Positions 3,215 to 25,276 of a stretch of 34,661 bases of DNA are shown here, in pieces. Source of the DNA: a virus (taxonomy: Duplodnaviria; Heunggongvirae; Uroviricota; Caudoviricetes); IMG/VR virus record IMGVR_UViG_2531839482_000004; one strand, written 5' to 3'. Each line of letters begins with the position of its first letter. Position 1 is the first letter of the stretch. The notes under the pieces are model-generated. The model had not been told where the DNA came from. It ran no database searches and saw only the letters and a list, made by a program, of their open reading frames with translations. Made by a program: the position numbers and the translations under genes.

Positions 3215-4297
3215 TTAGAACTGGTAAACCATACCTACAGCAACGATATCATCGGTAGCAACGCCAGATGCTTTCGTGAAATCGCTCTTATCAATCAGGT
3301 TGATTTTGTAGTCAACAAAAGTGGACATATTTTTGTTGAAGTAATAGGTTGCACCTACATCAACATATTCAACCAGGTCCTGATCACCCCAAACACCCAA
3401 GTCTTTTCCTTTAGAATGCAGGTAAGCAACGGATGGACGCAGGCCGAAGTCGAACTGATATTGTGCAACAGCTTCGAAGTTTTGTGCTTTGTTGGCAATA
3501 TGGTTATTACCAAAAACAGTCATGTTCTGGGTTTCAGAATAGGTGGTGGCCAGATAGATGTTGTTCGCATCATATTTCAGACCAGCTGCCCATACTTCAG
3601 CATTTTGACCAGAAGCATTCAGACCGTTGTTACCGTAGATAACCTGATTATTAGTGCGATCAGATTTAGCATAGGTTGCACCCACGCCGAATCCTTCATA
3701 CTCATAAGTAGTTGAGAAACCGAAACCATCGCCATTAGCTTCAGTTACTTCATTTCGGTCATTTTTGCCCTGATACTGAGCTGCAAAGTTCAGGCCATCA
3801 ACCAGACCAAAGAAGTCGTTGTTACGATAAGTTGCAACACCTGTGGTGCGACCAGTCATGAATACATCTGTTTGGGTCCAGGTATCGCCACCGAATTCTG
3901 GCAGAACGTCAGTCCACGCACCGATGTCGTATGCTACACCGTAGTTACGGCCGTAATCGATTGAGCCGTAGTCACCGAATTTCAGGCCTGCAAATGCAAG
4001 ACGGGTTTTGTCTTTGGAGGAACCTTGAGATTCAGCGCGGTTGCCTTTGAATTCATATTCCCACTGACCGAAACCAGTCAGTTGATCGTTGATTTGGGTT
4101 TCACCTTTGAAGCCAAGACGGGCATAAGTAGTATCACCATCATCTGCATCATTAGAGGAGAAGTAGTGCTTAGCATTAACTTTCCCGTACAGATCCAGCT
4201 TGTTACTGTCTTTATTATAAATTTCAGCTGCCTGAGCAGACATCGCCATCAGTACTGATGCAGCTACAGCAGAAATTGCCACTGTTAATTTTTTCAT
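3215..4297 (-). CDS. nmpC: outer membrane porin, OmpC/NmpC family (intact)
   Basis: 360-aa ORF with signal peptide [23 protein letters not shown], porin motifs and C-terminal ...VGMVYQF; opposite strand to the phage late genes, as for nmpC in DLP12. Confidence 0.9.
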
Positions 4298-7106: not shown

Positions 7107-7326
7107 CGGGTCCTTTCCGGCGATCCGACAGGTTACGGGGCGGCGACCTCGCGGGTTTTCGCTATTTATGAAAAATTTCCGGTTTAAGGCGTTTCCGTTC
7201 TTCTTCGTCATAACTTAATGTTTTTATTTAAAATACCCTCTGAAAAGAAAGGAAACGACAGGTGCTGAAAGCGAGCTTTTTGGCCTCTGTCGTTTCCTTT
7301 CTCTGTTTTTGTCCGTGGAATGAACA
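7107..7326 (+). other. helper prophage cos site (cosQ, cosN, cosB)
   Basis: gggtcctttccggcgatccgacaggttacg / GGGCGGCGACCT / cgcgggttttcgctatttatgaaaa... matches the lambda genome termini; cosN 12-nt cohesive end GGGCGGCGACCT at 7138-7149, followed by cosB R-elements (gtttccgttc, aaaggaaacgacagg, tgtcgtttcctttctc) up to the Nu1 start. Confidence 0.92.
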
Positions 7327-7846
7327 ATGGAAGTCAACAAAAAGCAGCTGGCTGACATTTTCGGTGCGAGTATCCGTACCATTCAGAACTGGCAGGAACA
7401 GGGAATGCCCGTTCTGCGAGGCGGTGGCAAGGGTAATGAGGTACTTTATGACTCTGCCGCCGTCATAAAATGGTATGCCGAAAGGGATGCTGAAATTGAG
7501 AACGAAAAGCTGCGCCGGGAGGTTGAAGAACTGCGGCAGGCCAGCGAGGCAGATCTCCAGCCAGGAACTATTGAGTACGAACGCCATCGACTTACGTGTG
7601 CGCAGGCCGACGCACAGGAACTGAAGAATGCCAGAGACTCCGCTGAAGTGGTGGAAACCGCATTCTGTACTTTCGTGTTGTCGCGGATCGCAGGTGAAAT
7701 TGCCAGTATTCTCGACGGGCTCCCCCTGTCGGTGCAGCGGCGTTTTCCGGAACTGGAAAACCGACATGTTGATTTCCTGAAACGGGATATTATCAAAGCC
7801 ATGAACAAAGCAGCCGCGCTGGATGAACTGATACCGGGGTTGCTGA

Positions 7847-7872
<26 letters not shown>
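7327..7872 (+). CDS. nu1: terminase small subunit Nu1
   Basis: 181-aa translation matches recalled lambda gpNu1 except for one or two substitutions. Confidence 0.95.
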
Positions 7873-11553
<3,681 letters not shown>

Positions 11554-11573
<20 letters not shown>

Positions 11574-12873
11574 TCTCCCGCATATTGCCAGTATGGCCTT
11601 TAATGAGCCGCTGATGCTTGAACCCGCCTATGCGCGGGTTTTCTTTTGTGCGCTTGCAGGCCAGCTTGGGATCAGCCGCCTGACGGATGCGGTGTCCGGC
11701 GACAGCCTGACTGCCGGAGAGGCACCCGCGGCGCTGGCGTTATCCGTTGATGATGACGGACCACGACAGGCCCGCAGTTATCAGGTCATGAACGGCATCG
11801 CCGTGCTGCCGGTGTCCGGCACGCTGGTCAGCCGGACGCGGGCGCTGCAGCCGTATTCGGGGATGACCGGTTACAACGGCATTATCGCCCGTCTGCAACA
11901 GGCTGCCAGCGATCCGATGGTGGACGGCATTCTGCTGGATATGGACACACCGGGCGGGATGGTGGCGGGAGCATTTGACTGTGCTGACATCATCGCCCGT
12001 GTGCGAGACATAAAACCGGTATGGGCGCTGGCCAACGACATGAACTGCAGTGCAGGTCAGCTGCTTGCCAGCGCCGCCTCCCGGCGTCTGGTCACGCAGA
12101 CCGCCCGGACAGGCTCCATCGGCGTCATGATGGCTCACAGTAATTACGGTGCTGCGCTGGAGAAACAGGGCGTGGAAATCACGCTGATTTACAGCGGCAG
12201 CCATAAGGTGGATGGCAACCCCTACAGCCATCTACCGGATGATGTCCGGGAAACACTGCAGTCCCGGATGGATGCAACCCGCCGGATGTTTGCACAGAAG
12301 GTGTCGGCATATACCGGCCTGTCCGTGCAGGCTGTGCTGGATACCGAGGCTGCAGTGTACAGCGGTCAGGAGGCCATTGATGCCGGACTGGCTGATGAAC
12401 TTGTGAACAGTACCGATGCGATCACCGTCATGCGTGATGCACTGGATGCACGTAAATCCCGTCTCTCAGGAGGGCGAATGACCAAAGAGACTCAATCAAC
12501 AACTGTTTCAGCCACTGCTTCGCAGGCTGACGTTACTGGCGTGGTGCAAGCGACGGAGGGCGAGAACGCCAGCGCTGCGCAGCCGGACGTGAACGCGCAG
12601 ATCACCGCAGCGGTTGCGGCAGAAAACAGTCGCATTATGGGGATCCTCAACTGTGAGGAGGCTCACGGACGCGAAGAACAGGCATGCGTGCTGGCCGAAA
12701 CCCCCGGTATGACCGTGGAAACGGCCCGCCGTATTCTGGCCGCAGCACCACAGAGTGCACAGGCGCGCAGTGACACTGCGCTGGATCGTCTGATGCAGGG
12801 GGCACCGGCACCGCTGGCTGCAGGTAACCCGGCATCTGATGCCGTTAACGATTTGCTGAACACACCAGTGTAA
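11554..12873 (+). CDS. C: head maturation protease / scaffold gpC
   Basis: GTG start at 11554 overlapping the B 3' end; 439 aa (VTAELRNLPHIASMAFNEPLMLEPAYARVFF...), lambda gpC. Confidence 0.93.
12268..12873 (+). CDS. nu3: scaffolding protein Nu3 (in-frame internal start within C)
   Basis: ATG at 12268 in the C frame (MDATRRMFAQKVSAY...), same nested arrangement as lambda Nu3. Confidence 0.8.
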   Translation: MDATRRMFAQKVSAYTGLSVQAVLDTEAAVYSGQEAIDAGLADELVNSTDAITVMRDALDARKSRLSGGRMTKETQSTTVSATASQADVTGVVQATEGENASAAQPDVNAQITAAVAAENSRIMGILNCEEAHGREEQACVLAETPGMTVETARRILAAAPQSAQARSDTALDRLMQGAPAPLAAGNPASDAVNDLLNTPV

Positions 12874-12882
12874 GGGATGTTT

Positions 12883-13215
12883 ATGACGAGCAAAGAAACC
12901 TTTACCCATTACCAGCCGCTGGGCAACAGTGACCCGGCTCATACCGCAACCGCGCCCGGCGGGTTGAGTGCGAAAGCGCCTGCAATGACCCCGCTGATGC
13001 TGGACCCCTCCACCCGTAAGCTGGTTGCGTGGGATGGCACCACCGACGGTGCTGCCGTTGGCATTCTTGCAGTTGCTGCTGACCAGACCAGCACCACACT
13101 GACGTTCTACAAGTCCGGCACGTTCCGTTATGAGGATGTGCTCTGGCCGGAGGCTGCCAGCGACGAGACGAAAAAACGGACCGCGTTTGCCGGAACGGCA
13201 ATCAGCATCGTTTAA
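12883..13215 (+). CDS. D: head decoration protein gpD
   Basis: [41 protein letters not shown]..., 110 aa, lambda gpD. Confidence 0.95.
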
Positions 13216-13235
13216 CCTGACCCTTCATCACTAAA

Positions 13236-13257
13236 GGCCGCCTGTGCGGCTTTTTTT
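13236..13257 (+). terminator. stem-loop plus T-tract between D and E
   Basis: gccgcctgtgcggc followed by ttttttt; weak terminator or attenuator-like structure. Confidence 0.35.
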
Positions 13258-13270
13258 ACGGGATTTTTTT

Positions 13271-13546
13271 ATGTCGATGTACACAACCGCCCAGCTGCTG
13301 GCGGCAAATGAGCAGAAATTTAAGTTTGATCCGCTGTTTCTGCGTCTCTTTTTCCGTGAGAGCTATCCCTTCACCACGGAGAAAGTCTATCTCTCACAAA
13401 TTCCTGGACTGGTAAACATGGCGCTGTACGTTTCGCCAATTGTTTCCGGTGAGGTTATCCGTTCCCGTGGCGGCTCCACCTCTGAATTTACGCCGGGTTA
13501 TGTCAAGCCGAAGCACTTAGCATGGCTTTCTGAGGCTTTCGTGTAG
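13271..13546 (+). pseudogene. E: major capsid protein gpE, N-terminal fragment (codons 1-82) interrupted by island insertion
   Basis: MSMYTTAQLLAANEQKFKFDPLFLRLFFRESYPF...TPGYVKPKH matches lambda gpE 1-82, then reads into island DNA (LAWLSEAFV*) and stops at 13546. Confidence 0.92.
13506..13515 (+). repeat. attL core AGCCGAAGCA (left island junction inside E)
   Basis: Identical 10-mer occurs at 24486-24495 at the other junction; sequence outside the pair is contiguous lambda E. Confidence 0.75.
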
Positions 13547-13678
13547 TTGCTGGTTTTTACACTTAATCTTTTGATAATAAAGAATAAGTTTATCTGGCGC
13601 TTTCACTGAATTTTCCTCGTTATCTGTGTGTTGCAATCATCTCTGTATTGCAGCTTGTATTGCTTTTTGGGGCTAAAA

Positions 13679-14914
13679 ATGGCTGGCGAGAACAAACTGA
13701 GCGACAAAGCGCTTAAAGGATATCTGGGGAAACCCAGAGAAAAGCAGATCACCATTGCTGATGGAAAGGGGCTTTCTATTCGTGTGAGTACTAAAGGGGC
13801 TGTGAGCTTTGTTTTCTTCTACAGGTTAGCAGGTGGCCGGGCTGCTCCGGTCTGGCTAACGTTGGGTAAATATCCTGATATGTCACTCAAACAGGCAAGG
13901 GAAAAGCGCGACGAGTGCCGTGGTTGGTTGGCTGACAAACGTGATCCGCGTATCCAGATTAAGATTCAGGCTGAAGAACGCTTAAAGCCGGTCACAGTGG
14001 AGGATGCACTAAATTACTGGTATGAAAATTACTGTAAGGTGCGTCGTAAAACTCATGCTGTAACGCTTGGCAGATTTCGAAAGCATATCTTTCCCTATAT
14101 CGGTCATTTGCCCGTAAATGACACTCACCTATATGAATGGCTGGACTGTTTTGACCGAATTAAACGTAATGCACCAGTTATGGCGGCGTATGTTTTTTCT
14201 GACACTAAATTAGCTCTTCGTTTTTGTCGGGTACGCCAGTACGCGACGTGTGATGCTTTAAAGGATTTGCGCATGAGTGATGTGGGGCAGATTGCAGGTA
14301 AGCGGGATCGGGTTCTGGATGAAGCCGAACTGGGCCAGCTCTGGAAGGCAATTTTTGTCGAGCCTGATTTAAAACTAATGTCTGAATACACGCGAAAAAT
14401 GTTTGTGCTTTGTACAGTATTTGGATGTCGAATGAGTGAAGCCCGATTATCTGAATGGAGTGAATGGGATCTCGAAAGTTGGGTTTGGACTGTACCAAAA
14501 GATCACTCAAAAACTGGTGTTGAAATCGTCAGACCAGTACCTGAAATTCTACGACAGTGGGTAACGGATGTTCACGAAGAGACAAAACATACTGGTTATG
14601 TGCTGGGAAGTCTGCGAATTAGAGAAAGCGTAAGCAAGATTGGGGGGAAAATCGGTAAACGTTTGGGCCATGAAAAACAATGGTCACTACACGACCTTAG
14701 AAGAACGCTATCTACTCATCTAAGTGATCTCGGTGTTGAATTTTATGTAGTAGAACAACTGTTAGGCCATGCGCTACCTGGCGTGGCAGGGGTTTACAAC
14801 AGGAGTACGTTTATGGCTAAAAAACTGGATGCTCTGGAACTCTGGACTACATATCTCAATAGCATCGCAGCTGCTGATTCAAAAGTGACAATCCTCAAAC
14901 AAAAGGCTGGTTAA
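13679..14914 (+). CDS. int: tyrosine integrase, P4-type with N-terminal arm-binding domain
   Basis: N-terminus LSDKALKGYLGKPREKQITIADGKGLSIRVS...LGKYPDMSLKQAREKRDE (DUF4102-like); C-terminal catalytic region with HDLRRT and LGH...GVY motifs; first gene inside the left junction. Confidence 0.88.
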   Translation: MAGENKLSDKALKGYLGKPREKQITIADGKGLSIRVSTKGAVSFVFFYRLAGGRAAPVWLTLGKYPDMSLKQAREKRDECRGWLADKRDPRIQIKIQAEERLKPVTVEDALNYWYENYCKVRRKTHAVTLGRFRKHIFPYIGHLPVNDTHLYEWLDCFDRIKRNAPVMAAYVFSDTKLALRFCRVRQYATCDALKDLRMSDVGQIAGKRDRVLDEAELGQLWKAIFVEPDLKLMSEYTRKMFVLCTVFGCRMSEARLSEWSEWDLESWVWTVPKDHSKTGVEIVRPVPEILRQWVTDVHEETKHTGYVLGSLRIRESVSKIGGKIGKRLGHEKQWSLHDLRRTLSTHLSDLGVEFYVVEQLLGHALPGVAGVYNRSTFMAKKLDALELWTTYLNSIAAADSKVTILKQKAG

Positions 14915-14915
14915 C

Positions 14916-15143
14916 ATGAAAAAAATGGCAATTGTTGATAAAAAGGGTCTGGAGTACATTCCTAACATTGACCGAATGATCCGTGAGAAAGAATGTCGGG
15001 AGCTAACCACTCTTGCGAACAGCACACGCTGGAAGCTGGAGAAGGAAGGAAAATTTCCTAAGCGGATCAAGATTGGCGCTACTGCGGTAGCTTATCGTCT
15101 CTCCGAAGTTCAGGCATGGATTAAGGGAGAATGGAGTAATTAA
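14916..15143 (+). CDS. alpA: AlpA-family HTH regulator / excisionase-like protein
   Basis: 75 aa; ATG overlaps int stop; ...IKIGATAVAYRLSEVQAWIKGE resembles the AlpA HTH pattern; position immediately after int as in E. coli PICIs and P4-like elements. Confidence 0.75.
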   Translation: MKKMAIVDKKGLEYIPNIDRMIREKECRELTTLANSTRWKLEKEGKFPKRIKIGATAVAYRLSEVQAWIKGEWSN

Positions 15144-15161
15144 ATAATAAGGTATTTCGAT

Positions 15162-15983
15162 ATGACAATGTGTGTTATTTGGAAGTCAGTTGATGGAACT
15201 ATTTATGCCGCCACAGATTCTCGACTGAGCTTTGAAGAAAAAAAGTTAGATCGTTGCGTTAAAATATCCCGAATCACATGTCTTTTACATGAGCCTAGTG
15301 ATGCAGTAGATACAAGTAAGATACTTGTTGATAAGCGTGAGATTGCTACATTATTCTGTGGAGGCTTTACAAATGCCTATATCATCAAGGAGAGCCTTAC
15401 TGAGATTTTAAATAAAATAGTTCTCATGAGGGAATACTCCGGCGTGCCCTTTTCGGAAATTATAGATATAGCGTTTTCCATTTATGAAGATACATCAAGA
15501 GATATGTTTGCATCATTAATGGACCAACGATTTGGATGTGTTTTTTACATGATAAGTTACTGCCCTGTATATAAGGAAATGCAAGCATTTAAATTTGAAT
15601 TCAAAATAAATGAAAACGGTATTAACTATTATAAATCTAAACTTTTTGAAGATCGTAACTATGAGGTTAATGGAAGTGGGGTGAGGTACTTGGAACAAAA
15701 TCATCGTATTGAAGATCTAGTTAAAGAAGCTTATCAGAAGAATAAATACACACCACTTCTAGATATACTTGAGTCCGTAATTAATGATGACGACTGTGAC
15801 TCTGTTGGAGGTGCAATGCAATACATTTCATGTAATAAAGATAGACTAAAATTGTGTTGTCATATGTTATTTGAAGAAAATAATCATAAGTATATGAAAG
15901 CTGGGGTGGACTTAAATGAACTCAATGAGAAGTTTATACCTTCTGGTTTGTTTTTTGAGACAGATGCAATCATCAAAAGATAA
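15162..15983 (+). CDS. hypothetical protein, AT-rich cargo gene (possible Ntn-hydrolase-like fold)
   Basis: 273-aa ORF with markedly lower GC than flanks; N-terminus MTMCVIWKSVDGTIYAATDSRL loosely resembles the proteasome/HslV-type N-terminal nucleophile region, with Cys where HslV has Thr. Similarity is weak and unverified. Confidence 0.5.
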   Translation: MTMCVIWKSVDGTIYAATDSRLSFEEKKLDRCVKISRITCLLHEPSDAVDTSKILVDKREIATLFCGGFTNAYIIKESLTEILNKIVLMREYSGVPFSEIIDIAFSIYEDTSRDMFASLMDQRFGCVFYMISYCPVYKEMQAFKFEFKINENGINYYKSKLFEDRNYEVNGSGVRYLEQNHRIEDLVKEAYQKNKYTPLLDILESVINDDDCDSVGGAMQYISCNKDRLKLCCHMLFEENNHKYMKAGVDLNELNEKFIPSGLFFETDAIIKR

Positions 15984-16292
15984 ACGATAACCGACTTTGA
16001 TTGTGATAATTTTATCAAGATTATGATGAATGCTGCAGTATATCTAACATGCTGCAGTTAACTCAATTTGTATTATCGCTAATATTTTTAATAACAAGGA
16101 TGTTTATTGCTTTTTTATTTGAGAGTGAACGTCTAACCATTGTTGTTCTTAGTTCTCATGGAGAGATTGGAGCTTAAAATACGCAATGTTTTGAAATCAG
16201 CGCAACTATATTCCGTAATTGTTCTTTGTCGTTCTTGCGTGGCACGGTGATACACCTCTCATGTCGGTTGTTTTTTTGAACGCAGAAACATA

Positions 16293-16320
16293 AAACAAAG
16301 GCGACCGGGATGGTCGCCAG
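16293..16320 (-). terminator. rho-independent terminator of the leftward island operon
   Basis: ggcgaccgggatggtcgcc hairpin; on the minus strand it is followed by tttgtttt, downstream of the 16387 stop. Confidence 0.5.
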
Positions 16321-16386
16321 TGGCATAACACTAAAATTGAGCGTATTCAGAATACCAAGTGTCGGCTGGTGGACAATGGAATCAGT

Positions 16387-16743
16387 TCAATATTTAGGTG
16401 GTTCAACAAGAGCGTTTATCATTGCTCTCAAATTATCGCGAACACTTATCCAAGTCTGTTCTGCTCGTTCTAACTCATTAGTGTACAGCTTTAATGTTTT
16501 ATCTATGCCATATGTGGCTATTAAATTTATAGCTTCTTGTAACTTTTCGGGATTATTCCTTCTTGGGGGAGTGAATATACCGCGGATTTTTCCGGTAATT
16601 AAAGCTTTACGGTGTCTACATAGAATACCTTTACTTCCTGCTGGACAATTACAAGTCATGATTAGCGAGCCAGAATCGTTTGATACAGTGACTATGTATA
16701 CATCCAAACTACTGCTACTTGTTGCGAAGAATTCGTATTTCAT
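16387..16743 (-). CDS. SWIM-type zinc-finger protein, hypothetical
   Basis: 118-aa ORF with CxC-x7-CxH motif (TCNCPAGSKGILCRH); AAGGAG 8 nt upstream of ATG 16743; preferred over the overlapping plus-strand ORF 16310-16750. Confidence 0.6.
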   Translation of the reverse strand: MKYEFFATSSSSLDVYIVTVSNDSGSLIMTCNCPAGSKGILCRHRKALITGKIRGIFTPPRRNNPEKLQEAINLIATYGIDKTLKLYTNELERAEQTWISVRDNLRAMINALVEPPKY

Positions 16744-16770
16744 GTGTTAGCTCCTTGACTTCAATTATTC

Positions 16771-16965
16771 TTATCCTTTTGGTTCAATACCGCGCCGTAG
16801 CAGCTCTTTGCGCCCTAACTCTTTAAGCCAGTTGGCAAGGCTTACCCCATCGTTACTGGCTTCGTTATCAAACTGCTCCTTCAATTCAGGAACTATGCGC
16901 ATATGGAACGGTGGGGCCTTTCCTGTGCCTTTTTGTTTTTTATCGCGCTTAATAACCGTTGACAT
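16771..16965 (-). CDS. small ribbon-helix-helix-like DNA-binding protein (candidate island regulator)
   Basis: 64 aa; ...FHMRIVPELKEQFDNEASNDGVSLANWLKELGRKEL has a beta-strand/helix/helix pattern like Arc/MetJ-type proteins; start codon abuts a palindromic operator-like site. Confidence 0.55.
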   Translation of the reverse strand: MSTVIKRDKKQKGTGKAPPFHMRIVPELKEQFDNEASNDGVSLANWLKELGRKELLRRGIEPKG

Positions 16966-17026
16966 GTGTACACCTATAGCGTTATGTTTTTATTCGATAG
17001 GTGTACACCTTAACATGTGTGCATTT
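16959..17026. promoter_or_regulatory. divergent control region with inverted repeats (operator candidate)
   Basis: GTGTACACCTAT (16966-16977) and its exact reverse complement ATAGGTGTACAC (16997-17008), 19-bp spacer; related ACATGTGT boxes at 16962 and 17014; TTGACA at 16959-16964. Confidence 0.5.
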
Positions 17027-17300
17027 AAAAACGCAACGCCCCGCAGTGCGGGAACACATGCAGGGCGTCTAACCACCAACGATAGCAACAGTATCGAGGT
17101 AGCTATGAGAAATCATCCCACACACCCGCAAGGGCGGGACTCGCACAACCTGAATAAATTCACTTGGCGCTTTATCGCCCTGAGTGCGGCTAAACCGCGC
17201 ATGCTTACCATCGTGGTCACCAGCGAGCAGGAAGACCGCCAGCAATCCCCAACTGGCTGCGTGATGATATTCGCCGCCCGTATTCGTCAGGAGGTGTGCC

Positions 17301-17525
17301 ATGAATGATCTTTATTTTAAAGTGCTGACACATGCTGAAAACGCGCTCGTTTGTGGCAAAAATATGCGAGAAATCTTATCAACCTGGCTTGATGGGACAA
17401 CAAATGCGGAACACGATGAACGGGATGCTAATTTAGCTGGAGCGTTAATTACGTTACTTGATCCTGTCATCAAAGAGCTGGATGAAGCTATAAAAATACA
17501 CGACCAGAGCTATACCGGAGAATAA
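17301..17525 (+). CDS. hypothetical protein
   Basis: 74-aa ORF, AGGAGG 8 nt upstream of ATG; first gene of the rightward operon leading to the primase. Confidence 0.6.
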   Translation: MNDLYFKVLTHAENALVCGKNMREILSTWLDGTTNAEHDERDANLAGALITLLDPVIKELDEAIKIHDQSYTGE

Positions 17526-17528
17526 AAA

Positions 17529-17816
17529 ATGAAAAATAAATTTTCTGGCTTTATTGCCAGCGGTCAAACTCATTCAAAAATCAGCCTTGGGGATATTTTC
17601 AAAGACAGCTATGGCTATCGGGTAAAGATTATTTCGGTTGATGATCGTCGTGTCTCTTATTTGCGTGATGGTTATGATTTTGAATGTGTTATGCCGCGTC
17701 AGCAGTTCGAAAGAGATTTCATTCTGGTAAAAAATTGCAAGACAGATAATCAGAGGCGTGCCGCAGGCTATATCCGTAAAATTCGGGCAATGTTAGTTGC
17801 CGGAGGTAACAAATGA
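17529..17816 (+). CDS. hypothetical protein
   Basis: 95-aa ORF, GGAGA upstream; tightly coupled to the primase gene (ATGA overlap). Confidence 0.6.
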   Translation: MKNKFSGFIASGQTHSKISLGDIFKDSYGYRVKIISVDDRRVSYLRDGYDFECVMPRQQFERDFILVKNCKTDNQRRAAGYIRKIRAMLVAGGNK

Positions 17817-19633
17817 AACGTGCTCCGAACTTAAAATACCAACCGCGCGACAAAATGACGGAAGTCATCATTTTTGCTGGCAGTGATGCCTGGAGCCATG
17901 CAAAAGAATGGAATGAATGGGCAGGTAAGCATATTGCAGCAGATGATACACCACCAGTCATTCTGGGTACGGAACAACTGGAAAACCTGGATGATATGCA
18001 AATTATCGATGAAGGCCGTCATTATGTGCGTGTTTATCGTGCCGGAAAGATTGCAGAGAAAAGTCTGACGAAGGTTGCGACATTACTTGCTATTGCAGGC
18101 GTAAAGGAAGCACGTTGTTACCGTAGCTTTGTTGATCGAGAGCCTGAAGACTGGACTCCGCGCCTTGTCGGCCTAAAAGCTGAAGCGGAGCATGGGGAAA
18201 GTCTGGTGATTGAACTGCCAGTGAAGAAGGCAGAGCGCAAAAATGACGAGCGTGCTTCATCTTTGGCGTTGAATCAGATGGGGGCCAGCCAGCGCGGTGA
18301 AGTTCTCCTTGCACATTACGGCGGTGAACTGGCAATCAATGCCGACTCTGACACCGTTCATCATTACAACGGCGTTGTATGGGAGCCGGTTCAGGATAAA
18401 GAGTTACAGCGTGCTATGGCGCAGATTTTCATTGATGCGGAGATCAGCTATTCGCAGAACGCTATTAAATCGGCGGTAGATACCATGAAGTTAAGTTTGC
18501 CTGTAATGGGGAATACAGCCCGTAACCTGATTGGATTCAGTAACGGGGTATTTGATACCAGAACTGGTAATTTTCGGGAGCATAACAAAAACGACTGGTT
18601 GTTAATTGCCAGTGAATTACCTTTCAGCCCACCAGCAGAGGGGGAAACGCTGGCAACACATGCGCCGAATTTCTGGAAGTGGTTGCGCCGTTCGGTGGCT
18701 GAGAATGACCGCAAGGCAGATCGCGTACTGGCGGCATTATTCATGGTGCTGGCGAACCGGTACGACTGGCAGTTATTCATTGAGGTAACAGGGCCGGGGG
18801 GAAGTGGTAAAAGTGTGATGGCGGAGATTTGCACCATGCTGGCGGGTAAGGCTAATACAGTATCAGCAAGCATGAAGGCGCTGGAAGATGCAAGGGAACG
18901 TGCGTTAGTGGTTGGCTTTTCGCTGATTATCATGCCGGATATGACCCGCTACGCTGGTGATGGGGCAGGGATTAAGGCCATTACAGGCGGTGACAAGGTG
19001 GCAATTGACCCGAAACACAAAGCCCCCTATTCAACGCGTATTCCGGCAGTAGTGCTGGCGGTTAACAATAACGCCATGTCATTCAGTGACCGCAGCGGGG
19101 GGATCTCACGTCGTCGGGTGATATTCAATTTTTCGGAAGTTGTACCGGAGAACGAACGCGATTCGATGCTGGCGGAAAAAATAGAAGGTGAGCTGGCGGT
19201 AGTGATTCGTCATCTGCTTACAAGGTTTGCTGATCAGGACGAAGCCAGACGCCTGTTATATGAGCAGCAGAAATCTGAAGAAGCACTGGCGATAAAGCGA
19301 GAGGGGGATTCGCTGGTGGACTTCTGCGGTTATCTCATGGCATCGGTAATGTGTGATGGCCTGTTAGTGGGTAATGCTGAAATTGTGCCATTCAGCCCAC
19401 GCAGGTATCTCTATCATGCCTATCTGGCTTATATGAGGGCACATGGGTTTGGTAAACCTGTAACACTGACGCGCTTCGGTAAAGATATGCCGGGGGCAAT
19501 GGCGGAATATGGCAGGGGGTATATGAAACGGAAAACGAAGCACGGTTTGCGTTCAAACGTGACACTGACGGAGGAATCAGAAGACTGGATGCCATCATGT
19601 GTATCGGTCACTAATGACGATAGCAAAAATTAA
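17813..19633 (+). CDS. primase/helicase-type replication protein (P4/PICI pri-rep family, D5-like NTPase)
   Basis: 606 aa; Walker A GPGGSGKS; overall architecture like P4-family primase C-terminal/helicase proteins; GGAGG RBS. Confidence 0.8.
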   Translation: MKRAPNLKYQPRDKMTEVIIFAGSDAWSHAKEWNEWAGKHIAADDTPPVILGTEQLENLDDMQIIDEGRHYVRVYRAGKIAEKSLTKVATLLAIAGVKEARCYRSFVDREPEDWTPRLVGLKAEAEHGESLVIELPVKKAERKNDERASSLALNQMGASQRGEVLLAHYGGELAINADSDTVHHYNGVVWEPVQDKELQRAMAQIFIDAEISYSQNAIKSAVDTMKLSLPVMGNTARNLIGFSNGVFDTRTGNFREHNKNDWLLIASELPFSPPAEGETLATHAPNFWKWLRRSVAENDRKADRVLAALFMVLANRYDWQLFIEVTGPGGSGKSVMAEICTMLAGKANTVSASMKALEDARERALVVGFSLIIMPDMTRYAGDGAGIKAITGGDKVAIDPKHKAPYSTRIPAVVLAVNNNAMSFSDRSGGISRRRVIFNFSEVVPENERDSMLAEKIEGELAVVIRHLLTRFADQDEARRLLYEQQKSEEALAIKREGDSLVDFCGYLMASVMCDGLLVGNAEIVPFSPRRYLYHAYLAYMRAHGFGKPVTLTRFGKDMPGAMAEYGRGYMKRKTKHGLRSNVTLTEESEDWMPSCVSVTNDDSKN

Positions 19634-19644
19634 ACTTATGGAAT

Positions 19645-19800
19645 AACTGTTCACCAAACTATTCACCGTTCACCTTTTTGATTATTTATTGAGCTTCAAG
19701 GGTGAACAGTGGTGAACAGTTGGTGAATAGTTTTTGTGAAACTGTTCACCCATTAACATTATGAATTAAAAGAGAAAATATCAAAAGGTGAACAGGTGAA
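19645..19800. repeat. iteron cluster, candidate island origin of replication
   Basis: About nine copies of GGTGAACAG / CTGTTCACC (and GGTGAAT variants) in both orientations around an AT-rich core (19756-19786), immediately downstream of the primase gene. Confidence 0.75.
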
Positions 19801-19846
19801 GGGTTAAAACGCAAAAATTTTAATTTACTGCTGTGAGATAAAGCCT

Positions 19847-20092
19847 ATGACAGCGAAGCACACAAAAAAATCACAATCGCACGCCCTTGATTTGACGGAA
19901 CACTGGTTAAGGGTGTCGATAAAAATCATCGACCGCAACGCCGGGGAAGGATACGCGAAAGCACATCCCGAACTGATTAGCGCATTCATGACAACGGCGG
20001 CTGCAAACTTTGCCACTCTGACCGAACGGGAGATTGCTGAAGCGGAGGAAGTGACAACAATCAATATTAAGTCCGGAGAGCAGGCAGCATGA
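19847..20092 (+). CDS. hypothetical protein
   Basis: 81-aa ORF between the origin and the ssb-like gene; no family recognised. Confidence 0.5.
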   Translation: MTAKHTKKSQSHALDLTEHWLRVSIKIIDRNAGEGYAKAHPELISAFMTTAAANFATLTEREIAEAEEVTTINIKSGEQAA

Positions 20093-20538
20093 CGGCGCAA
20101 ATATCAGTTTACGGGCGGTTGGTGGACGACCCGCAGACAAAACAGACCAGCAAGGGCACCCCCATGACGCTGGCGCGTATGGCGGTATCACTGCCCTGCA
20201 GTCAGTCGGATGACGGTCAGGCGACGATGTGGTTATCTGTCCTGGCGTTTGGCAGACAAGCCGACGCGCTGGCAAAGCATCACAAAGGCGAACTCCTGAG
20301 CGTGGCGGGTAATATGCAGGTGAGCCAGTGGACTGGACAGAACGGTGAAACGCGGCAGGGCTGGCAGGTTATCGCAGACAGCGTAATCAGTGCGCGAACG
20401 GTGCGACCGGGCGGCAAAAAAGGTCAACAGGGTCAGGCTACTGACGCACTGAACAGAGCAAAACAACAGGTAGATCAGCAAGGAAGCCATCCACCAGTGG
20501 GAGATAATGAGCAATGGGGAGATGATATTCCGTTTTAA
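20089..20538 (+). CDS. ssb: single-stranded DNA-binding protein (SSB-like)
   Basis: 149 aa; OB-fold-like N-terminus, Gly/Gln-rich linker, C-terminal acidic tail ...WGDDIPF as in SSB proteins. Confidence 0.75.
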   Translation: MTAQISVYGRLVDDPQTKQTSKGTPMTLARMAVSLPCSQSDDGQATMWLSVLAFGRQADALAKHHKGELLSVAGNMQVSQWTGQNGETRQGWQVIADSVISARTVRPGGKKGQQGQATDALNRAKQQVDQQGSHPPVGDNEQWGDDIPF

Positions 20539-20755
20539 ATATTGCCAATAAAAAAGGCCGGAAAAAAATAAATTTTCCGGCATGCTACATAAATCCCGAC
20601 CAAAGGGAGTGAAGATATTAACACTAATTATCCGCGCTGAAGTTGTTATCCCAAAACTTTATACAACATTGCACTCGGTTGCATGTATTCGCATGACAAA
20701 TATCGGTGATAGCATATATCCACAATTATTTTTAATGAATGCAAAGAGGATGCGT

Positions 20756-21796
20756 ATGGTTGATTTATATTCGCCTACCCAGCTTGTACAGGTGGTTAAT
20801 GCTGTAGATGTACAAAAACAACTAAATGCGTTGTTTACCAGTTTGTTTTTTACTCGCTCGGTAATGTTTGAATCGCGCGATATTATTCTTGATACAATCG
20901 ACGATCCAAATATCCCAATTGCAGCGTTTTGTTCTCCTATGGTGGGTAGTAAAGTTTCACGTGACGAAGGGTACGAATCAAAAACAATTCGTCCAGGCTA
21001 TATGAAGCCGAAAAGCAGCATTGATCCAAATAAGTTAGCTGTGCGCCCTGCTGGTGTATCACCTGAGCAATACAATGCTTTTGGAGCGCGTAATATTAAA
21101 GTTAAACAGGCGATTGTAAATCAGGCTAAATCTATTCGTGCACGTATTGAATGGCTTGCCGTTCAGGCAATCACAACGGGGAAAAATATCATTGAGGGCG
21201 ATGGTATTGAACGTTATGAGCTGGACTGGAATATTAAACCACAAAATATCATCACTCAGTCTGGCGGTGCTGAGTGGTCAGGTAAGGATAAAGAAACTTT
21301 TGATCCAAATGATGATATTGAGAGCTACGCAGAATTTAGTGAGGGCGTCACTAATATCATCATTATGGGCGGTAATGTATGGAAGAAATACCGTTCATTC
21401 AGAGCGATAAAAGAGGCTCTGGATACCCGTCGTGGTTCTAATTCCGAACTGGAAACGGCCCTTAAAGACCTTGGTGATTCGGTGAGTTTTAAAGGGTATA
21501 TGGGCGATGTTGCGATTGTTGTATACAGCGGGCGTTATACCGACGAGGACGGAACTGAAAAACATTTCCTTGATCCTGATTTGATGGTGCTTGGCAATAC
21601 GGCTCTTCAGGGGATTGTCGCCTATGGCGGTATTCAGGATCCGGAGCTAATCCGAATGGGGCTGACTAAAGCCGAACTTGCACCGAAAAACTATATTGTG
21701 CCTGGTGATCCGGCTATTGAATATGTGCAGACACATTCAGCACCACAGCCAATACCGGCCCGCATCAATCGTTTTGTTACCGTTCGCATTGGCTAA
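20756..21796 (+). CDS. island-encoded major capsid protein, divergent paralog of lambda gpE
   Basis: 346 aa; shares RPGYMKPK, NIITQSGGAEWSGKDKETFDPNDDIESYA, ALDTRRGSNSELETALKDLG, AIVVYSG, MVLGNT with helper gpE but is diverged throughout; AGAGGA RBS 6 nt before ATG 20756. Confidence 0.88.
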   Translation: MVDLYSPTQLVQVVNAVDVQKQLNALFTSLFFTRSVMFESRDIILDTIDDPNIPIAAFCSPMVGSKVSRDEGYESKTIRPGYMKPKSSIDPNKLAVRPAGVSPEQYNAFGARNIKVKQAIVNQAKSIRARIEWLAVQAITTGKNIIEGDGIERYELDWNIKPQNIITQSGGAEWSGKDKETFDPNDDIESYAEFSEGVTNIIIMGGNVWKKYRSFRAIKEALDTRRGSNSELETALKDLGDSVSFKGYMGDVAIVVYSGRYTDEDGTEKHFLDPDLMVLGNTALQGIVAYGGIQDPELIRMGLTKAELAPKNYIVPGDPAIEYVQTHSAPQPIPARINRFVTVRIG

Positions 21797-21805
21797 GGGG
21801 GAGCA

Positions 21806-22147
21806 ATGGCTACTCATTACACTGAACTCATGGCTGGCACTGAAGCACTGGTGACTACGCTGGGGATATTTTCAGCTAATAAAGGGGTAATTCCTGCATT
21901 TACGCCACTGATGCAGGAAGATGCAACAGGTGCACTGGTGGTATGGGATGGTTCGAGCGTAGGTAAAGCGGTTTATGTTTCCGCTGTACAAATCGACACC
22001 GCGAAAAAAACACAGGCTCAGGTCTATAAGACAGGTGTCTTAAATGTTGATGCTCTGAACTGGCCTGAGTCTGTAAAAGAACTGTCAGTAAAGATTGCAG
22101 CGTTTGTTGGCTCAGGTATTTCTGTTCAGCCGCTGGCTCGTGTGTAA
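21806..22147 (+). CDS. island-encoded decoration protein, divergent paralog of lambda gpD
   Basis: 113 aa; shares TPLM, LVVWDG, YKTGV, WPE, AAFVGSGISV with gpD; lies downstream of the capsid gene (order E-like then D-like, opposite to lambda). Confidence 0.75.
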   Translation: MATHYTELMAGTEALVTTLGIFSANKGVIPAFTPLMQEDATGALVVWDGSSVGKAVYVSAVQIDTAKKTQAQVYKTGVLNVDALNWPESVKELSVKIAAFVGSGISVQPLARV

Positions 22148-22158
22148 AGGGGGATACA

Positions 22159-22542
22159 ATGCAGAATGATTACAATGACCTTAAGCCAATTGCCGAAATG
22201 ATGTACCCGAATCCAGCTGTAGAGGAATTAAAAGCTATCGCTGACAAAATGTGTTTAAGCGAGCGCCTTGTTGATATGAATCAGGTGATGGAAATTACAA
22301 CCCTGAGTCGGCGTACACTGCTAAACCTTGAGGCTAGTGGAGAGTTCCCGGAGCGTGTGCAGGTTACGGAAGGGCGTAAGGCCTGGTATTTAAGTGAAGT
22401 GATCGACTGGATAAATAATATTCCTCGCGCTTCTGAATATTGCCGCGTACCTGTCCCAAAAAAGCCAGATGCGGCGCTATGCCTCAAGATTGAGCGTGTA
22501 CGCCGCAATGCACGGGATGGTCGCTATAAGCTGATTGGTTGA
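22159..22542 (+). CDS. AlpA/MerR-like HTH protein with N- and C-terminal extensions
   Basis: 127 aa; core MEITTLSRRTLLNLEASGEFPERVQVTEGRKAWYLSEVIDWI fits the AlpA-type HTH pattern. Confidence 0.6.
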   Translation: MQNDYNDLKPIAEMMYPNPAVEELKAIADKMCLSERLVDMNQVMEITTLSRRTLLNLEASGEFPERVQVTEGRKAWYLSEVIDWINNIPRASEYCRVPVPKKPDAALCLKIERVRRNARDGRYKLIG

Positions 22543-22565
22543 TGAAATTAGGGCCCGCTCTGGCT

Positions 22566-22787
22566 GGCGGGTCCTTTCCGGCGATCTGACAGGCTACGGG
22601 GCGTCAGGCGCGCAGTTTTTCGCTATTTGTGAAAATTTTCCTGTTTAAGGCGTTTCCGTTCTTCTTCGCCGTAACTTAATGTTTTTATTAAAAACACCCC
22701 CTAAAAAGAAAGGAAACGACAGGTGCTAAAAACAGGCTTTTTGGCCTCTGTCGTTTCCTTTCTCTGGTTTTGTCCGTGGAATGAACA
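22566..22787 (+). other. island cos site (cosQ and cosB conserved, cosN divergent)
   Basis: Aligns base-for-base with helper cos 7107-7326, but the cosN position reads GGGCGTCAGGCG (helper GGGCGGCGACCT), with further changes just downstream. Confidence 0.8.
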
Positions 22788-22853
22788 ATGGAAGCCAACA
22801 AAAAGCAGCTGGCTGACATTTTCGGTGCGAGTATCCGTACCATTCAGAACTAG
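22788..22853 (+). pseudogene. Nu1-paralog N-terminal segment ending in an in-frame amber codon (codon 22)
   Basis: MEANKKQLADIFGASIRTIQN then TAG where helper Nu1 has TGG (Trp). Confidence 0.7.
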
Positions 22854-22865
22854 CAGGAGCAGGGA

Positions 22866-23339
22866 ATGCCCGTTCTGCGAGGCGGTGGCAAGGGTAATGA
22901 GGTGCTTTATGACTCTGCCGCCGTCATAAAATGGTATGCCGAAAGGGATGCTGAAATTGAGAACGAAAAGCTGCGCCGGGAGGTTGAAGAACTGCGGCAG
23001 GCCAGCGAGGCAGATCTCCTGCCAGGGACTATTGAGTATGAACGCCATCGACTTACGCGTGCGCAGGCCGACGCACAGGAACTGAAGAATGCCAGCGAAA
23101 CAGGTGAGGTAATTGACACTGCATTTGCGACTTATGCTTTGTCGAAATTAACTGGGGAAGTTGGAGCAATCATTGATAGTCTTCCACTTGCGATCTGTCG
23201 ACAGTTTCCTGGCATGGAAAAACGGTATCAGGACTTCATTAAGATGGAGGTCAGTAAAGCATTTATTCGAGCTTACCAGATCTCAGATAACATTCCAGAT
23301 ATGGCTGAAAGGTATATCAAGGATAATCAGCGAAGTTAA
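22866..23339 (+). CDS. N-terminally truncated terminase small-subunit paralog (Nu1 residues 27-end; divergent C-terminal domain)
   Basis: Starts at the codon equivalent to Nu1 Met27, where a GAA->GAG change creates a GGAG Shine-Dalgarno 6 nt upstream; first ~80 aa near-identical to Nu1, last ~75 aa replaced by AT-rich divergent sequence. Confidence 0.7.
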   Translation: MPVLRGGGKGNEVLYDSAAVIKWYAERDAEIENEKLRREVEELRQASEADLLPGTIEYERHRLTRAQADAQELKNASETGEVIDTAFATYALSKLTGEVGAIIDSLPLAICRQFPGMEKRYQDFIKMEVSKAFIRAYQISDNIPDMAERYIKDNQRS

Positions 23340-23445
23340 AACAAATGAAACCATAGGTAGGAAGAGTGCTTAGGTGGTTCTTTGTTGCTTAAAAGTCGCC
23401 AGTAAAACTGGCGATAGATTTTATTTGTCAAAAGCATTTGACCTT

Positions 23446-24351
23446 TTAAGGTAGTGGTACTATGGATATTTTTCTGTCGTTCCCAAATGAACTTTTAAAT
23501 AATTTCGCTCTTGGATACATCTTAACTAGTGATGCGACTTCATCGAACTCGCTGGCATCAAAAAGAGGACCAAGTATTACAGATTTTAACTCAAAAGGGT
23601 GAAATTTTAAGTCGCTATATTGACCAGTGCTATTTGGCCTAGCGTAGGTTGAAATTCTCCACTCTCTTTCATATGCCCATTCTTCTGTTTTTATGAATAT
23701 TATCTCATTATTGATATATTCAATTGACTTATTGTCTGGCATGAAAAGCAACTCGGCCATCCCTTCAGCAGTGTGAGTTAGAGGCATTTCATCTGTGTAT
23801 TTCATAGGTTTGGCTATTAACCAAGCGCTATCCAGAAAGTCTACACAATCAAATTCGATAACTATACCTTTATATTTATCGGCATAGTGATTCCACATAG
23901 GAGTGATTATAGGGCTCTCAGATAAACACAAAATCCTTCTGTTATTAAGCATTCCTCGCCAGACATCTTTCATTTCTTGTATTGCCGCAGGAGCGCCAAT
24001 CCCAACTGGTGGAATGTTTACCATTTCTTGAAATCTTTCAATTAATCCTGCGGGTATGCCTAAAGGAAATGACTTTTGGAAATCACTTAGCATTGTTCTA
24101 ATTCTAGGGTTTAAATTTTGTATGTCTTCTCTGGGGGTAATCAACTCCGCTATTAACTTGCGGGCTAAAGCTTTGCCAATATTAATTTCGTTAATACCAG
24201 GCATAACTTCTCTTGGAACATCAAAAGGGTCATTAAATAGGACCGGAGAACTCCATCTAAGGCTGCATGAATCAAGAACAATTTTCGCGGTATTCAACGA
24301 CATATACTTATAAAATGTTGAGCGTTCATGCATTCTGTTGGGTGAGCGCAT
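23446..24351 (-). CDS. hypothetical protein, DUF2971-like, AT-rich cargo gene
   Basis: 301 aa; N-terminal FYKYMSL...LRWSSPVLFNDPFD and WAYEREWRI motifs as recalled for DUF2971 proteins; low GC; GAGGA RBS; last gene before the right junction. Confidence 0.55.
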   Translation of the reverse strand: MRSPNRMHERSTFYKYMSLNTAKIVLDSCSLRWSSPVLFNDPFDVPREVMPGINEINIGKALARKLIAELITPREDIQNLNPRIRTMLSDFQKSFPLGIPAGLIERFQEMVNIPPVGIGAPAAIQEMKDVWRGMLNNRRILCLSESPIITPMWNHYADKYKGIVIEFDCVDFLDSAWLIAKPMKYTDEMPLTHTAEGMAELLFMPDNKSIEYINNEIIFIKTEEWAYEREWRISTYARPNSTGQYSDLKFHPFELKSVILGPLFDASEFDEVASLVKMYPRAKLFKSSFGNDRKISIVPLP

Positions 24352-24485
24352 AGATTCCTCTTGTTAAATGAGTGATGGTTTTCATCCATGTATTGCACGT
24401 TGTATTGCATTCAAGGATTTTCCATTTCAATTCTATAGCTAAAACGTAATCAAATCATTCACATCCTTTCATATTTGACTCATGT

Positions 24486-24495
24486 AGCCGAAGCA
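24486..24495 (+). repeat. attR core AGCCGAAGCA (right island junction)
   Basis: Identical to 13506-13515; E coding sequence resumes in frame immediately afterwards. Confidence 0.75.
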
Positions 24496-25276
24496 TGAGG
24501 TGAATCCGCAGATGACCCTGCGTCGCCTGCCGGATGAAGATCCGCAGAATCTGGCGGACCCGGCTTACCGCCGCCGTCGCATCATCCTGCAGAACATGCG
24601 TGACGAAGAGCTGGCCATTGCTCAGGTCGAAGAGATGCAGGCAGTTTCTGCCGTGCTCAAGGGCAAATACACCATGACCGGTGAAGCCTTCGATCCGGTT
24701 GAGGTGGATATGGGCCGCAGTGCGGCGAACAACATCACGCAGTCCGGCGGCACGGAGTGGAGCAAGCGTGACAAGTCCACGTATGACCCGACCGACGATA
24801 TCGAAGCCTACGCGCTGAACGCCAGCGGCGTGGTGAATATCATCGTGTTTGATCCGAAAGGCTGGGCGCTGTTCCGTTCCTTCAAAGCCGTCAAGGAGAA
24901 GCTGGATACCCGTCGCGGCTCTAATTCCGAGCTGGAGACAGCGGTAAAAGACCTGGGCGAAGCGGTGTCCTATAAGGGGATGTATGGCGATACGGCGATC
25001 GTCGTGTATTCCGGACAGTACGTGGAAAACGACGTCAAAAAGAACTTCCTGCCGGACAACACGATGGTGCTGGGGAACACTCAGGCACGCGGTCTGCGCA
25101 CCTATGGCTGCATTCAGGATGCGGACGCACAGCGCGAAGGTATTAACGCCTCTGCCCGCTACCCGAAAAACTGGGTGACCACCGGCGATCCGGCGCGTGA
25201 GTTCACCATGATTCAGTCAGCACCGCTGATGCTGCTGGCTGATCCTGATGCGTTCGTGTCCGTACAACTGGCGTAA
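24486..25276 (+). pseudogene. E: major capsid protein gpE, C-terminal fragment (codons ~80-341)
   Basis: ...KHEVNPQMTLRRLPDEDPQNLADPAYRRRRIILQNMRDEE... to ...FVSVQLA matches lambda gpE; preceded in frame by a TAG from island DNA. Confidence 0.92.

Follow-up and report, generated by a model that had tools for sequence, protein, structure and literature searches.

The window analysed here, i.e., the whole stretch of 34,661 nt, holds the late region of a lambda-like prophage and, inserted in it, a satellite of the 11capE type, i.e., a helper-embedded PICI that is co-oriented with the late operon of its helper (Table 1). Besides the helper genes listed in the table, FI was also matched by Pfam. 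The att cores (AGCCGAAGCA) correspond to codons 79-82 of helper gene E, and a search of the whole window finds exact copies of this 10-mer at attL and attR only. Joining the two flanks gives ...GYVKPKHEVNPQ... and restores an intact E ORF of 341 codons. The location of the cores in these codons and the intact joined ORF assign the element to the helper-embedded PICIs of site E:Phage_cap_E_80. The megablast matches of about 3000 other E. coli genomes end exactly at position 13515, the last base of the core, and 173 of the 5426 complete E. coli genomes contain the attL junction. Joining the halves gives an intact helper E in all 12 composites in which both of them are covered. These 12 sequences are all different, with pN/pS of about 0.05-0.17; judged by them, helper E is still needed and under selection in the composites.

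Table 1. Position of the helper and island features in the window
Feature	Position	Strand	Remark
Helper head and packaging genes Nu1, A, W, B (portal), C (S49 protease/scaffold), D	7327..13215	+	Pfam Phage_Nu1, GpA_ATPase/GpA_nuclease, gpW, Phage_portal_2, Peptidase_S49, HDPD
Helper E, 5' part	13271..13515	+	Codons 1-82, ended by the island; translation MSMYTTAQLL...GYVKPKH
attL core	13506..13515	+	AGCCGAAGCA, exact 10-mer
Satellite (helper-embedded PICI, 11capE type)	13516..24495	+	10,980 bp; co-oriented with the helper late operon
Tyrosine integrase	13679..14914	+	Pfam Arm-DNA-bind_3 and Phage_integrase; start according to the RefSeq annotation of copy L001
AlpA regulator/excisionase homologue	14916..15143	+	Pfam Phage_AlpA, 6e-15
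D5-type primase/helicase (replication)	17813..19633	+	Pfam D5_N, DUF5906, Pox_D5
Single-strand DNA-binding protein	20089..20538	+	Pfam SSB, 2.7e-16
Satellite-type gpE homologue (major capsid protein)	20756..21796	+	346 aa
Satellite-type gpD homologue (head decoration protein)	21806..22147	+	113 aa
Second AlpA-like HTH protein	22159..22542	+	127 aa; Pfam Phage_AlpA, 7.6e-9
Island cos region (cosQ-cosN-cosB)	22567..22790	+	About 96% identical to helper cos outside cosN
Island cosN core	22599-22610	+	GGGCGTCAGGCG
Nu1-type small-terminase gene	22788..23339	+	In-frame TAG at 22851-22853 (codon 22)
Cargo gene, DUF2971 protein	23446..24351	-	Pfam DUF2971; PADLOC PDC-S31 (candidate defence family), 2.5e-32
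attR core	24486..24495	+	AGCCGAAGCA, exact 10-mer
Helper E, 3' part	24496..25276	+	Codons 83-341

The island has an integrase gene at its left end, alpA, a primase module, a size within 10-20 kb, genes mostly in one direction, no lysis or tail genes, and a cos site of helper type followed by a Nu1-type gene. These are the features of Gram-negative PICIs, and the island is thus a satellite, as the original prediction had it; the coordinates given there are all correct. The genes on the opposite strand are those of a SWIM protein, of an adjoining small ORF and of the DUF2971 cargo protein. Other island genes encode a 273-aa protein without assigned family and a DUF4222 protein. The DNA of the integrase is 98-100% identical among the E-embedded copies. 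The Rfam scan of the island returned zero matches, and the sites found by a promoter/terminator scan around the E/D pair are no commoner than in shuffled sequence.

Pfam finds no portal, protease/scaffold, head-tail connector or large-terminase gene among the island ORFs. The island thus lacks the portal, protease, connectors and large terminase of its own that define capsid-forming PICIs. The claim that it carries only shell and decoration genes is correct as far as portal, protease/scaffold and large terminase are concerned, but it had missed the cos site and the Nu1-type gene. Between cosQ and Nu1 codon ~100 the island and the helper have about 96% identity, except for the cosN core and codon 22. 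The 12-nt cohesive-end core bears clustered changes (the variant is GGGCGTCAGGCG, the comparison cosN sequence GGGCGGCGACCT). It had been considered that this variant cosN could be specific to embedded satellites; this is weakened by a two-base neighbour present in two real phages. The Nu1-type gene is near-identical to helper Nu1 over its first ~100 codons and diverged over its last ~80. Its codon 22 is changed from TGG to TAG in the window copy, and the sister copies have an intact Nu1-type gene of 183 aa, annotated as small terminase. On these alignments, the view that cos and the 5' segment of Nu1 were recently captured from the helper holds.

The E-like and D-like genes

A ribosome-binding site, AAGAGG, precedes the E-like ORF by 7 nt, and the start of this ORF is the same in the RefSeq annotation of a 99.7% identical copy (L001 16331-17371). 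Its product aligns end to end with the reconstituted helper gpE (41% identity, E=4e-84) and matches Pfam Phage_cap_E (PF03864) with 142.7 bits (cut-off 22.9) over positions 4-327 of the 329 of the profile; the proposed homology to helper gpE is thus confirmed. Divergence had been announced over the whole length of the protein. It does run over the full length, but it is uneven: the consensus residue is common to the satellite and phage groups at 65-85% of the positions within residues 161-260, and at just 25-40% of the positions within residues 41-80 (the E-loop), 121-160 (the spine helix and the next strands) and 321-340. The central domain and the N-arm motif (L26, F27, F31, F32) are common to the E-like protein and phage gpE.

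The AF2 model of the E-like protein has a pLDDT of 80.9 and a pTM of 0.80, with low confidence at the tip of the E-loop only. It superposes on 3BQW with a TM-score of 0.91 and on lambda gpE (7VI9/7SJ5) with one of 0.82-0.88. The predicted fold is that of plain lambda gpE (HK97-like), no domain being gained or lost, and by alignment and model the E-like protein is a full-length lambda-type shell protein. At the att-equivalent site (21005-21017) the E-like gene reads AAGCCGAAAAGCA and, for that reason, does not contain the att-core 10-mer; this point of the original prediction stands.

The D-like gene starts 9 nt after the E-like gene and has its own ribosome-binding site, GGGGGAG. The D-like protein is indeed a homologue of helper gpD, as proposed (38% identity, E=1e-17; Pfam HDPD, PF02924, 56.3 bits for a cut-off of 29.1). 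It matches PDB 1TD0 at 6e-16 and lambda gpD at 1e-11, and it retains the THY motif of the N-terminal strand of gpD. The E-like, D-like and second AlpA-like genes are spaced by 9-11 nt, each with a strong ribosome-binding site, so that the trio looks like one operon. The second AlpA-like gene follows the E/D pair in every E. coli, Serratia, Salmonella and Cedecea island examined.

In lambda, the E-loop and the N-arm make up the gpD-binding sheet, and the E-loop and spine-helix regions provide inter-subunit and gpD contacts. Since the E-like protein diverges in the E-loop, this may be the reason why a cognate D has been retained. The divergence of E-loop and spine helix from phage gpE would also fit altered assembly.

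A lineage restricted to satellites

Among 50,697 phage genomes, the best match of the E-like protein is lambda, with 41.7% identity, and none exceeds 42%. In the protein database, identities range from 100% to about 50% within a satellite group (Escherichia, Cedecea, Scandinavium, Serratia, Edwardsiella, Salmonella, Lelliottia), then come the phage gpE at 44% or less. The neighbour-joining (NJ) tree separates satellite and phage sequences in 300 bootstraps out of 300 once row P0044, a helper/satellite hybrid, is removed; the split failed while this row was included. The 11 satellite-group contexts examined, from six genera, are all int-alpA-primase islands, and the phage-group contexts examined are all prophage head operons. 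In all the satellites examined E precedes D, and all the phages examined have D before E.

At unsaturated distances, dN/dS is 0.03-0.09 for the E-like gene and 0.08-0.12 for the D-like gene. The further copies are intact in 79 cases out of 79 (E-like) and in 78 out of 79 (D-like). By these sequence comparisons, the E/D pair is an old, satellite-only lineage under purifying selection. A recent capture of the pair from the helper was considered but discarded, no phage being closer than 42% and the gene order being reversed.

The same pair, with a nucleotide identity of about 96-97%, is carried by chromosomal PICIs at cspD-clpS and abgR-smrA, and a second cspD-clpS island has a more diverged allele. 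Serratia and Lelliottia have more distant members of the lineage at fis, and Edwardsiella has one in an island that interrupts the portal gene of a helper with intact D and E; that island has no copy of the portal gene. Islands embedded upstream of helper E, with this gene left intact, carry the same pair too. Judged by this distribution, the E/D module is independent of the insertion site. The satellite E is 41-47% identical to the E of its own helper (three genera), and the helpers differ from each other by 37-44%; on these values the satellite E does not track the E of its own helper. The satellite-only lineage, the purifying selection, the reversed order and the presence of the pair beside an intact helper E are new in the present analysis.

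Possible roles of the pair

The E/D pair is a conserved capsid module of a kind known in Gram-negative PICIs, here in a helper-embedded element. Its most probable role, to which we give slightly less than an even chance, would be to supply bulk components to full-size heads built on the helper machinery and, in addition, to provide cover while helper E is split. The pair would be transcribed together with the co-oriented island in the late phase. The E-like and D-like proteins would then join the helper portal, protease/scaffold, terminase and tails to form ordinary full-size (T=7) heads, the pair thus providing the two head components required in the largest number. A lambda head contains roughly 415 gpE, about as many gpD, and 12 portal subunits. 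Each of these full-size heads would hold the 11-kb island about four times, head to tail. For an embedded island, the pair would also cover the interval during which helper E is still split; this cover would be a by-product, since the same pair is present where the satellite does not disrupt E.

The 21 embedded islands with mosaic content measure 10.37-11.61 kb, i.e., 41.5-46.4 kb for four copies. The packaging range of lambda is roughly 38-51 kb, and four copies of islands of this size would thus fill a lambda head. The island sizes support full-size heads, and four copies per head would parallel the proposed cos-skipping of EcCICFT073. Among 94 loci, no excised (attP), circular or cos-ended contig of the island was found; such contigs could have indicated the packaging of monomers.

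EcCICFT073 encodes the capsid protein c1499 and the head decoration protein c1500 (Fillol-Salom et al. 2018, PMC6092414). Both were located in CFT073; the E-like protein is 55% identical to c1499 and the D-like protein 54% identical to c1500, versus 41% and 38%, respectively, for helper gpE and gpD. In a lambda/EcCICFT073 lysogen all the DNA that had been packaged was of phage size, and cos-skipping was proposed for the packaging of EcCICFT073 (PMC6092414). Deletion of c1499 or c1500 did not relieve the interference with lambda and was judged without effect on transfer, which reached up to 10^6 per ml when c1499 was replaced by cat (PMC6092414). It must be noticed that in Table 1 of that paper the c1499 deletion gives 0.48-0.60 of the wild-type transfer in all four recipients; this is no effect for the authors and may be a weak hint of a supply role. 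As the authors report no phenotype for these deletions, such a role must be small under laboratory conditions. At 41% identity, mixed assembly of the E-like protein with helper gpE is putative, and so is a structural role of the pair in 11capE-type particles. A pair that could be freely exchanged with phage E/D would be expected in some phage; its absence from the phage genomes searched hints at a satellite-specific specialisation that the supply role leaves unexplained, and gives some room to the more exotic readings.

Other roles can be weighed on the same data. The original prediction was that the capsid is remodelled to a smaller T number. Small-capsid remodelling is unlikely according to our analysis, and we find it improbable that the satellite shell protein, alone or as Ccm-like pentamers in a helper lattice, builds a small head for one 11-kb genome and excludes the helper genome. 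There are precedents, i.e., Ccm, a capsid homologue acting as pentamers (PMC8569155), and Pasteurella PmCI172, which makes small heads and encodes a capsid homologue (PMC6092414); the clade-specific changes in the E-loop, the spine helix and the C-terminal strands would agree with such a role. The narrow size range of the embedded islands (10.4-11.6 kb) would agree as well, but it is explained equally well by four copies per full lambda head. Moreover, EcCICFT073, whose pair is 54-55% identical, packaged only phage-sized DNA, and neither interference nor transfer was altered when c1499 or c1500 was deleted. The structure comparison gives a plain gpE fold, without domain added or lost relative to gpE, and helper E is intact and under selection in 12 composites out of 12. 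Smaller heads as the reason for the pair are also difficult to reconcile with its presence in satellites that leave E uninterrupted. The same low probability is given to a distinct, satellite-only shell built by the satellite-type E and D, either with a smaller T number or of the same size and excluding helper gpE. If true, the embedded satellite would form its own type of head and leave the helper capsid gene split, and the absence of this capsid lineage from phages would be explained.

Interference or a decoy function, which is unlikely although slightly less so, would mean that the pair is directed against phages and not at packaging, in that it poisons the head assembly of the helper or of a competitor, titrates scaffold or portal, or masks capsid-sensing immunity. 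PICIs commonly interfere with their helpers, and the pair was never found in phages. Interference was not relieved when c1499 or c1500 was deleted, but Rpp, the main interference factor, was still present in these tests, so that a weaker effect would be masked. A poison needs no cognate decoration protein under equal selection, and neither the E-like nor the D-like protein matches any PADLOC defence family. According to Tommasini et al. (PMC10111431), the capsid gene could be a pure backup copy that merely replaces the interrupted helper gene: helper E cannot be expressed before excision, which is late (2 h), and the island came from a screen for islands with a homologue of their target gene. 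This is as doubtful as a small head, for the same pair is present in chromosomal PICIs and in portal-gene islands whose helper has an intact D and E, the D gene is duplicated too although it is not interrupted, and the portal-gene-embedded island has no portal copy. Finally, it is very improbable that the pair is a remnant without function, left by an earlier capture of helper late genes. The lack of phenotype of c1499/c1500 would be expected of a remnant, and the capture of late genes by PICIs is documented; on the contrary, dN/dS values of 0.03-0.12, intact copies (E-like 79/79, D-like 78/79), conservation across six genera and the lack of a close donor among the 50,697 phage genomes all speak against it.

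The supply of bulk components to full-size heads is retained as a tentative proposal. Why satellites alone should keep an old lineage of the most abundant two head proteins, strongly conserved and with no laboratory phenotype found, is a puzzle. The phenotype of the pair is best sought in the embedded form, where helper E becomes available only on excision.

Comparison with known elements

The nesting of a satellite in its own helper's capsid gene is a striking arrangement, described in 2023 by Tommasini, Mageeney & Williams, who report 201 elements at the E site (PMC10111431). In that paper Eco567.11capE of E. coli NRG857c, an 11-kb PICI, lies in prophage 50icd, in its capsid gene E, has an identity block of 10 bp and was discovered by a screen for islands carrying a homologue of their own target gene. 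The same source gives the order of events as excision of the composite, replication, then late excision of the satellite (2 h); excision was shown and particles could not be recovered. Its Figure 1A compares the att-equivalent segment of the gpE-family gene of the island, the divergence of which would prevent self-integration. The window island is an 11capE-type element, and the element with its own capsid gene was already published in 2023 (PMC10111431). Both share the 11-kb size, the insertion in E, the co-orientation with the late genes, int, alpA and primase, a gpE-family gene differing at the att-equivalent site, and a cos-like segment in common. The window is not from the Eco567.11capE strain, its closest complete-genome match being 99.6% identical. 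In that paper 11capE is said to be without terS, whereas the sister copies of the window island have an intact Nu1-type gene, with one nonsense codon in the window; the available text makes no mention of a decoration gene in 11capE (PMC10111431).

The capsid/decoration pair of an E. coli PICI was described and knocked out in 2018. EcCICFT073 resembles the window island in being a PICI with E and D, in this order, behind primase and SSB, and its pair belongs to the same satellite-only clade. It differs in that it is chromosomal, whereas the window island is helper-embedded, and in that it packages via Rpp and a cos with a foreign cosB, whereas the island keeps the helper cosB and a Nu1-type gene. 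By sequence and by fold, the E-like protein is best matched by PDB 3BQW, a CFT073 «putative capsid protein of prophage» whose crystal structure dates from 2008. By its 351 aa and its 53-55% identity to the E-like protein, 3BQW appears to be c1499. The literature search found no later work on c1499 or on helper-embedded PICIs beyond PMC10111431 and PMC6092414.

Lambda gpE and gpD (and phage 21 SHP) belong to the same Pfam families as the island pair, with the same lengths and fold. Lambda gpE and gpD differ from the pair by their identity (41% and 38%) and by the reversed gene order; unlike lambda gpE, the island capsid protein was never found as the capsid of a sequenced phage (50,697 genomes). 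Ccm of SaPIbov5 is a capsid-protein homologue that takes up the pentamers, giving heads that are small, with T=4 (Hawkins et al. 2021, PMC8569155). Like the E-like protein, it is encoded by a satellite with cos packaging and is homologous to the capsid protein of the helper. Unlike it, Ccm has a demonstrated effect on size and shape, has no decoration partner and belongs to an unrelated sequence family; no size effect was seen in EcCICFT073, the nearest studied relative of the island pair. Capsid-forming PICIs, e.g., EcCIEDL933, share with the island the PICI backbone and a capsid gene of their own in a clade apart from the phage homologues, but they also encode protease and portal, as well as head-tail connectors and large terminase. 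The phenotype of the pair would show whether classical PICIs are a step towards capsid-forming PICIs.

Gene order of the E/D module and a hybrid capsid gene

The order of the two head genes separates satellites from phages. In all the satellites examined the capsid gene E precedes the decoration gene D, whereas in all the phages examined D precedes E; the comparison covers the island and helper of the window and the loci L003-L009, L092 and L093. This opposite order shows that the satellite module was not simply captured as a block from a helper.

One locus (L094, a metagenome scaffold) contains a hybrid capsid gene, whose product is P0044. This gene is of the helper E type over its 5' two-thirds, and its 3' third matches the island E-like gene exactly; helper C and D lie upstream and the island D-like gene downstream. 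The crossover coincides with the sole 14-nt exact match between the helper E and island E-like genes. Encountered a single time, this hybrid arose either naturally, as a recombinant or cointegrate, or as a chimera during assembly.

Features of the window and of the compared loci
Feature	Location	Strand	Remarks
Helper porin gene	3215-4297	-	full-length, Gram-negative type; Pfam Porin_1, 3.6e-152
Helper cosN	7138-7149
Helper D-E order	12883-13515
18-mer similar to the hairpin	17532-17549
Perfect 9-bp hairpin	20557-20581		GCCGGAAAA...TTTTCCGGC; between ssb and the E-like gene
Island E-D order	20756-22147
Island cosN	22599-22610
Chimeric Nu1-type small-terminase gene	22788-23339		
DUF2971 protein gene	23446-24351	-	island right end; match to candidate defence family PDC-S31, 2.5e-32
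Hybrid capsid gene (P0044)	L094 2801-3829
TIR-domain protein	L093 12106-13254		Cedecea
Salmonella island with E/D pair	L005 4292-~14000		among P2-like tail genes of a prophage
S49 (gpC-like) protease gene of a fis-site PICI	L006 11409-12752		Lelliottia

Island cosN and Nu1-type gene

The island and helper cos sites share an identity of about 96%, and the cohesive-end core reads GGGCGTCAGGCG in the island and GGGCGGCGACCT in the helper. In a set of 84 loci that carry this E/D module, a variant core is present in 37 of the 42 E-embedded islands and in 3 of the 17 islands seen not to lie in E; these loci come from related samples, so the counts are not independent. Four different right flanks accompany the variant core, which is carried by 71-73 of 5426 complete genomes. 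Phages PhiR46_1 and YDC107_1 have as their cos GGGCGGAAGGCG, a two-base neighbour of this core.

The Nu1-type gene is almost identical to helper Nu1 from codon 1 to about codon 100. Its last ~80 codons, which include the part binding the terminase large subunit, are diverged. Codon 22 is an in-frame TAG in the window and in three IMG/VR copies; the gene is uninterrupted in L001 (the locus with a 99.7% identical copy of the island E-like gene) and in three other copies. According to the published description of 11capE (PMC10111431), terS is absent from this element.

Right-end gene, intergenic hairpin and helper porin

At the position of the DUF2971 gene of the window, the Cedecea relative encodes a TIR-domain protein instead. 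This difference suggests that the island right end is a variable cargo or defence slot.

The hairpin upstream of the E-like gene obtains a terminator score on the minus strand only. The helper porin gene is located upstream of the helper lysis and packaging region, and a prophage of CFT073 has a similar gene, annotated ompC.

E/D islands in other settings

In Lelliottia the protease gene lies directly 3' of the E/D pair, which takes this PICI one step closer to a more complete set of head genes. Some prophages pair a lambda-type head with a contractile tail of the P2 type, and these also host E-embedded islands (L092, L093). The genes around the Salmonella island are baseplate J, I, fibre, then tube. 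This site may be a late-gene target beyond the lambda cognates listed by Tommasini et al. 2023 (PMC10111431).
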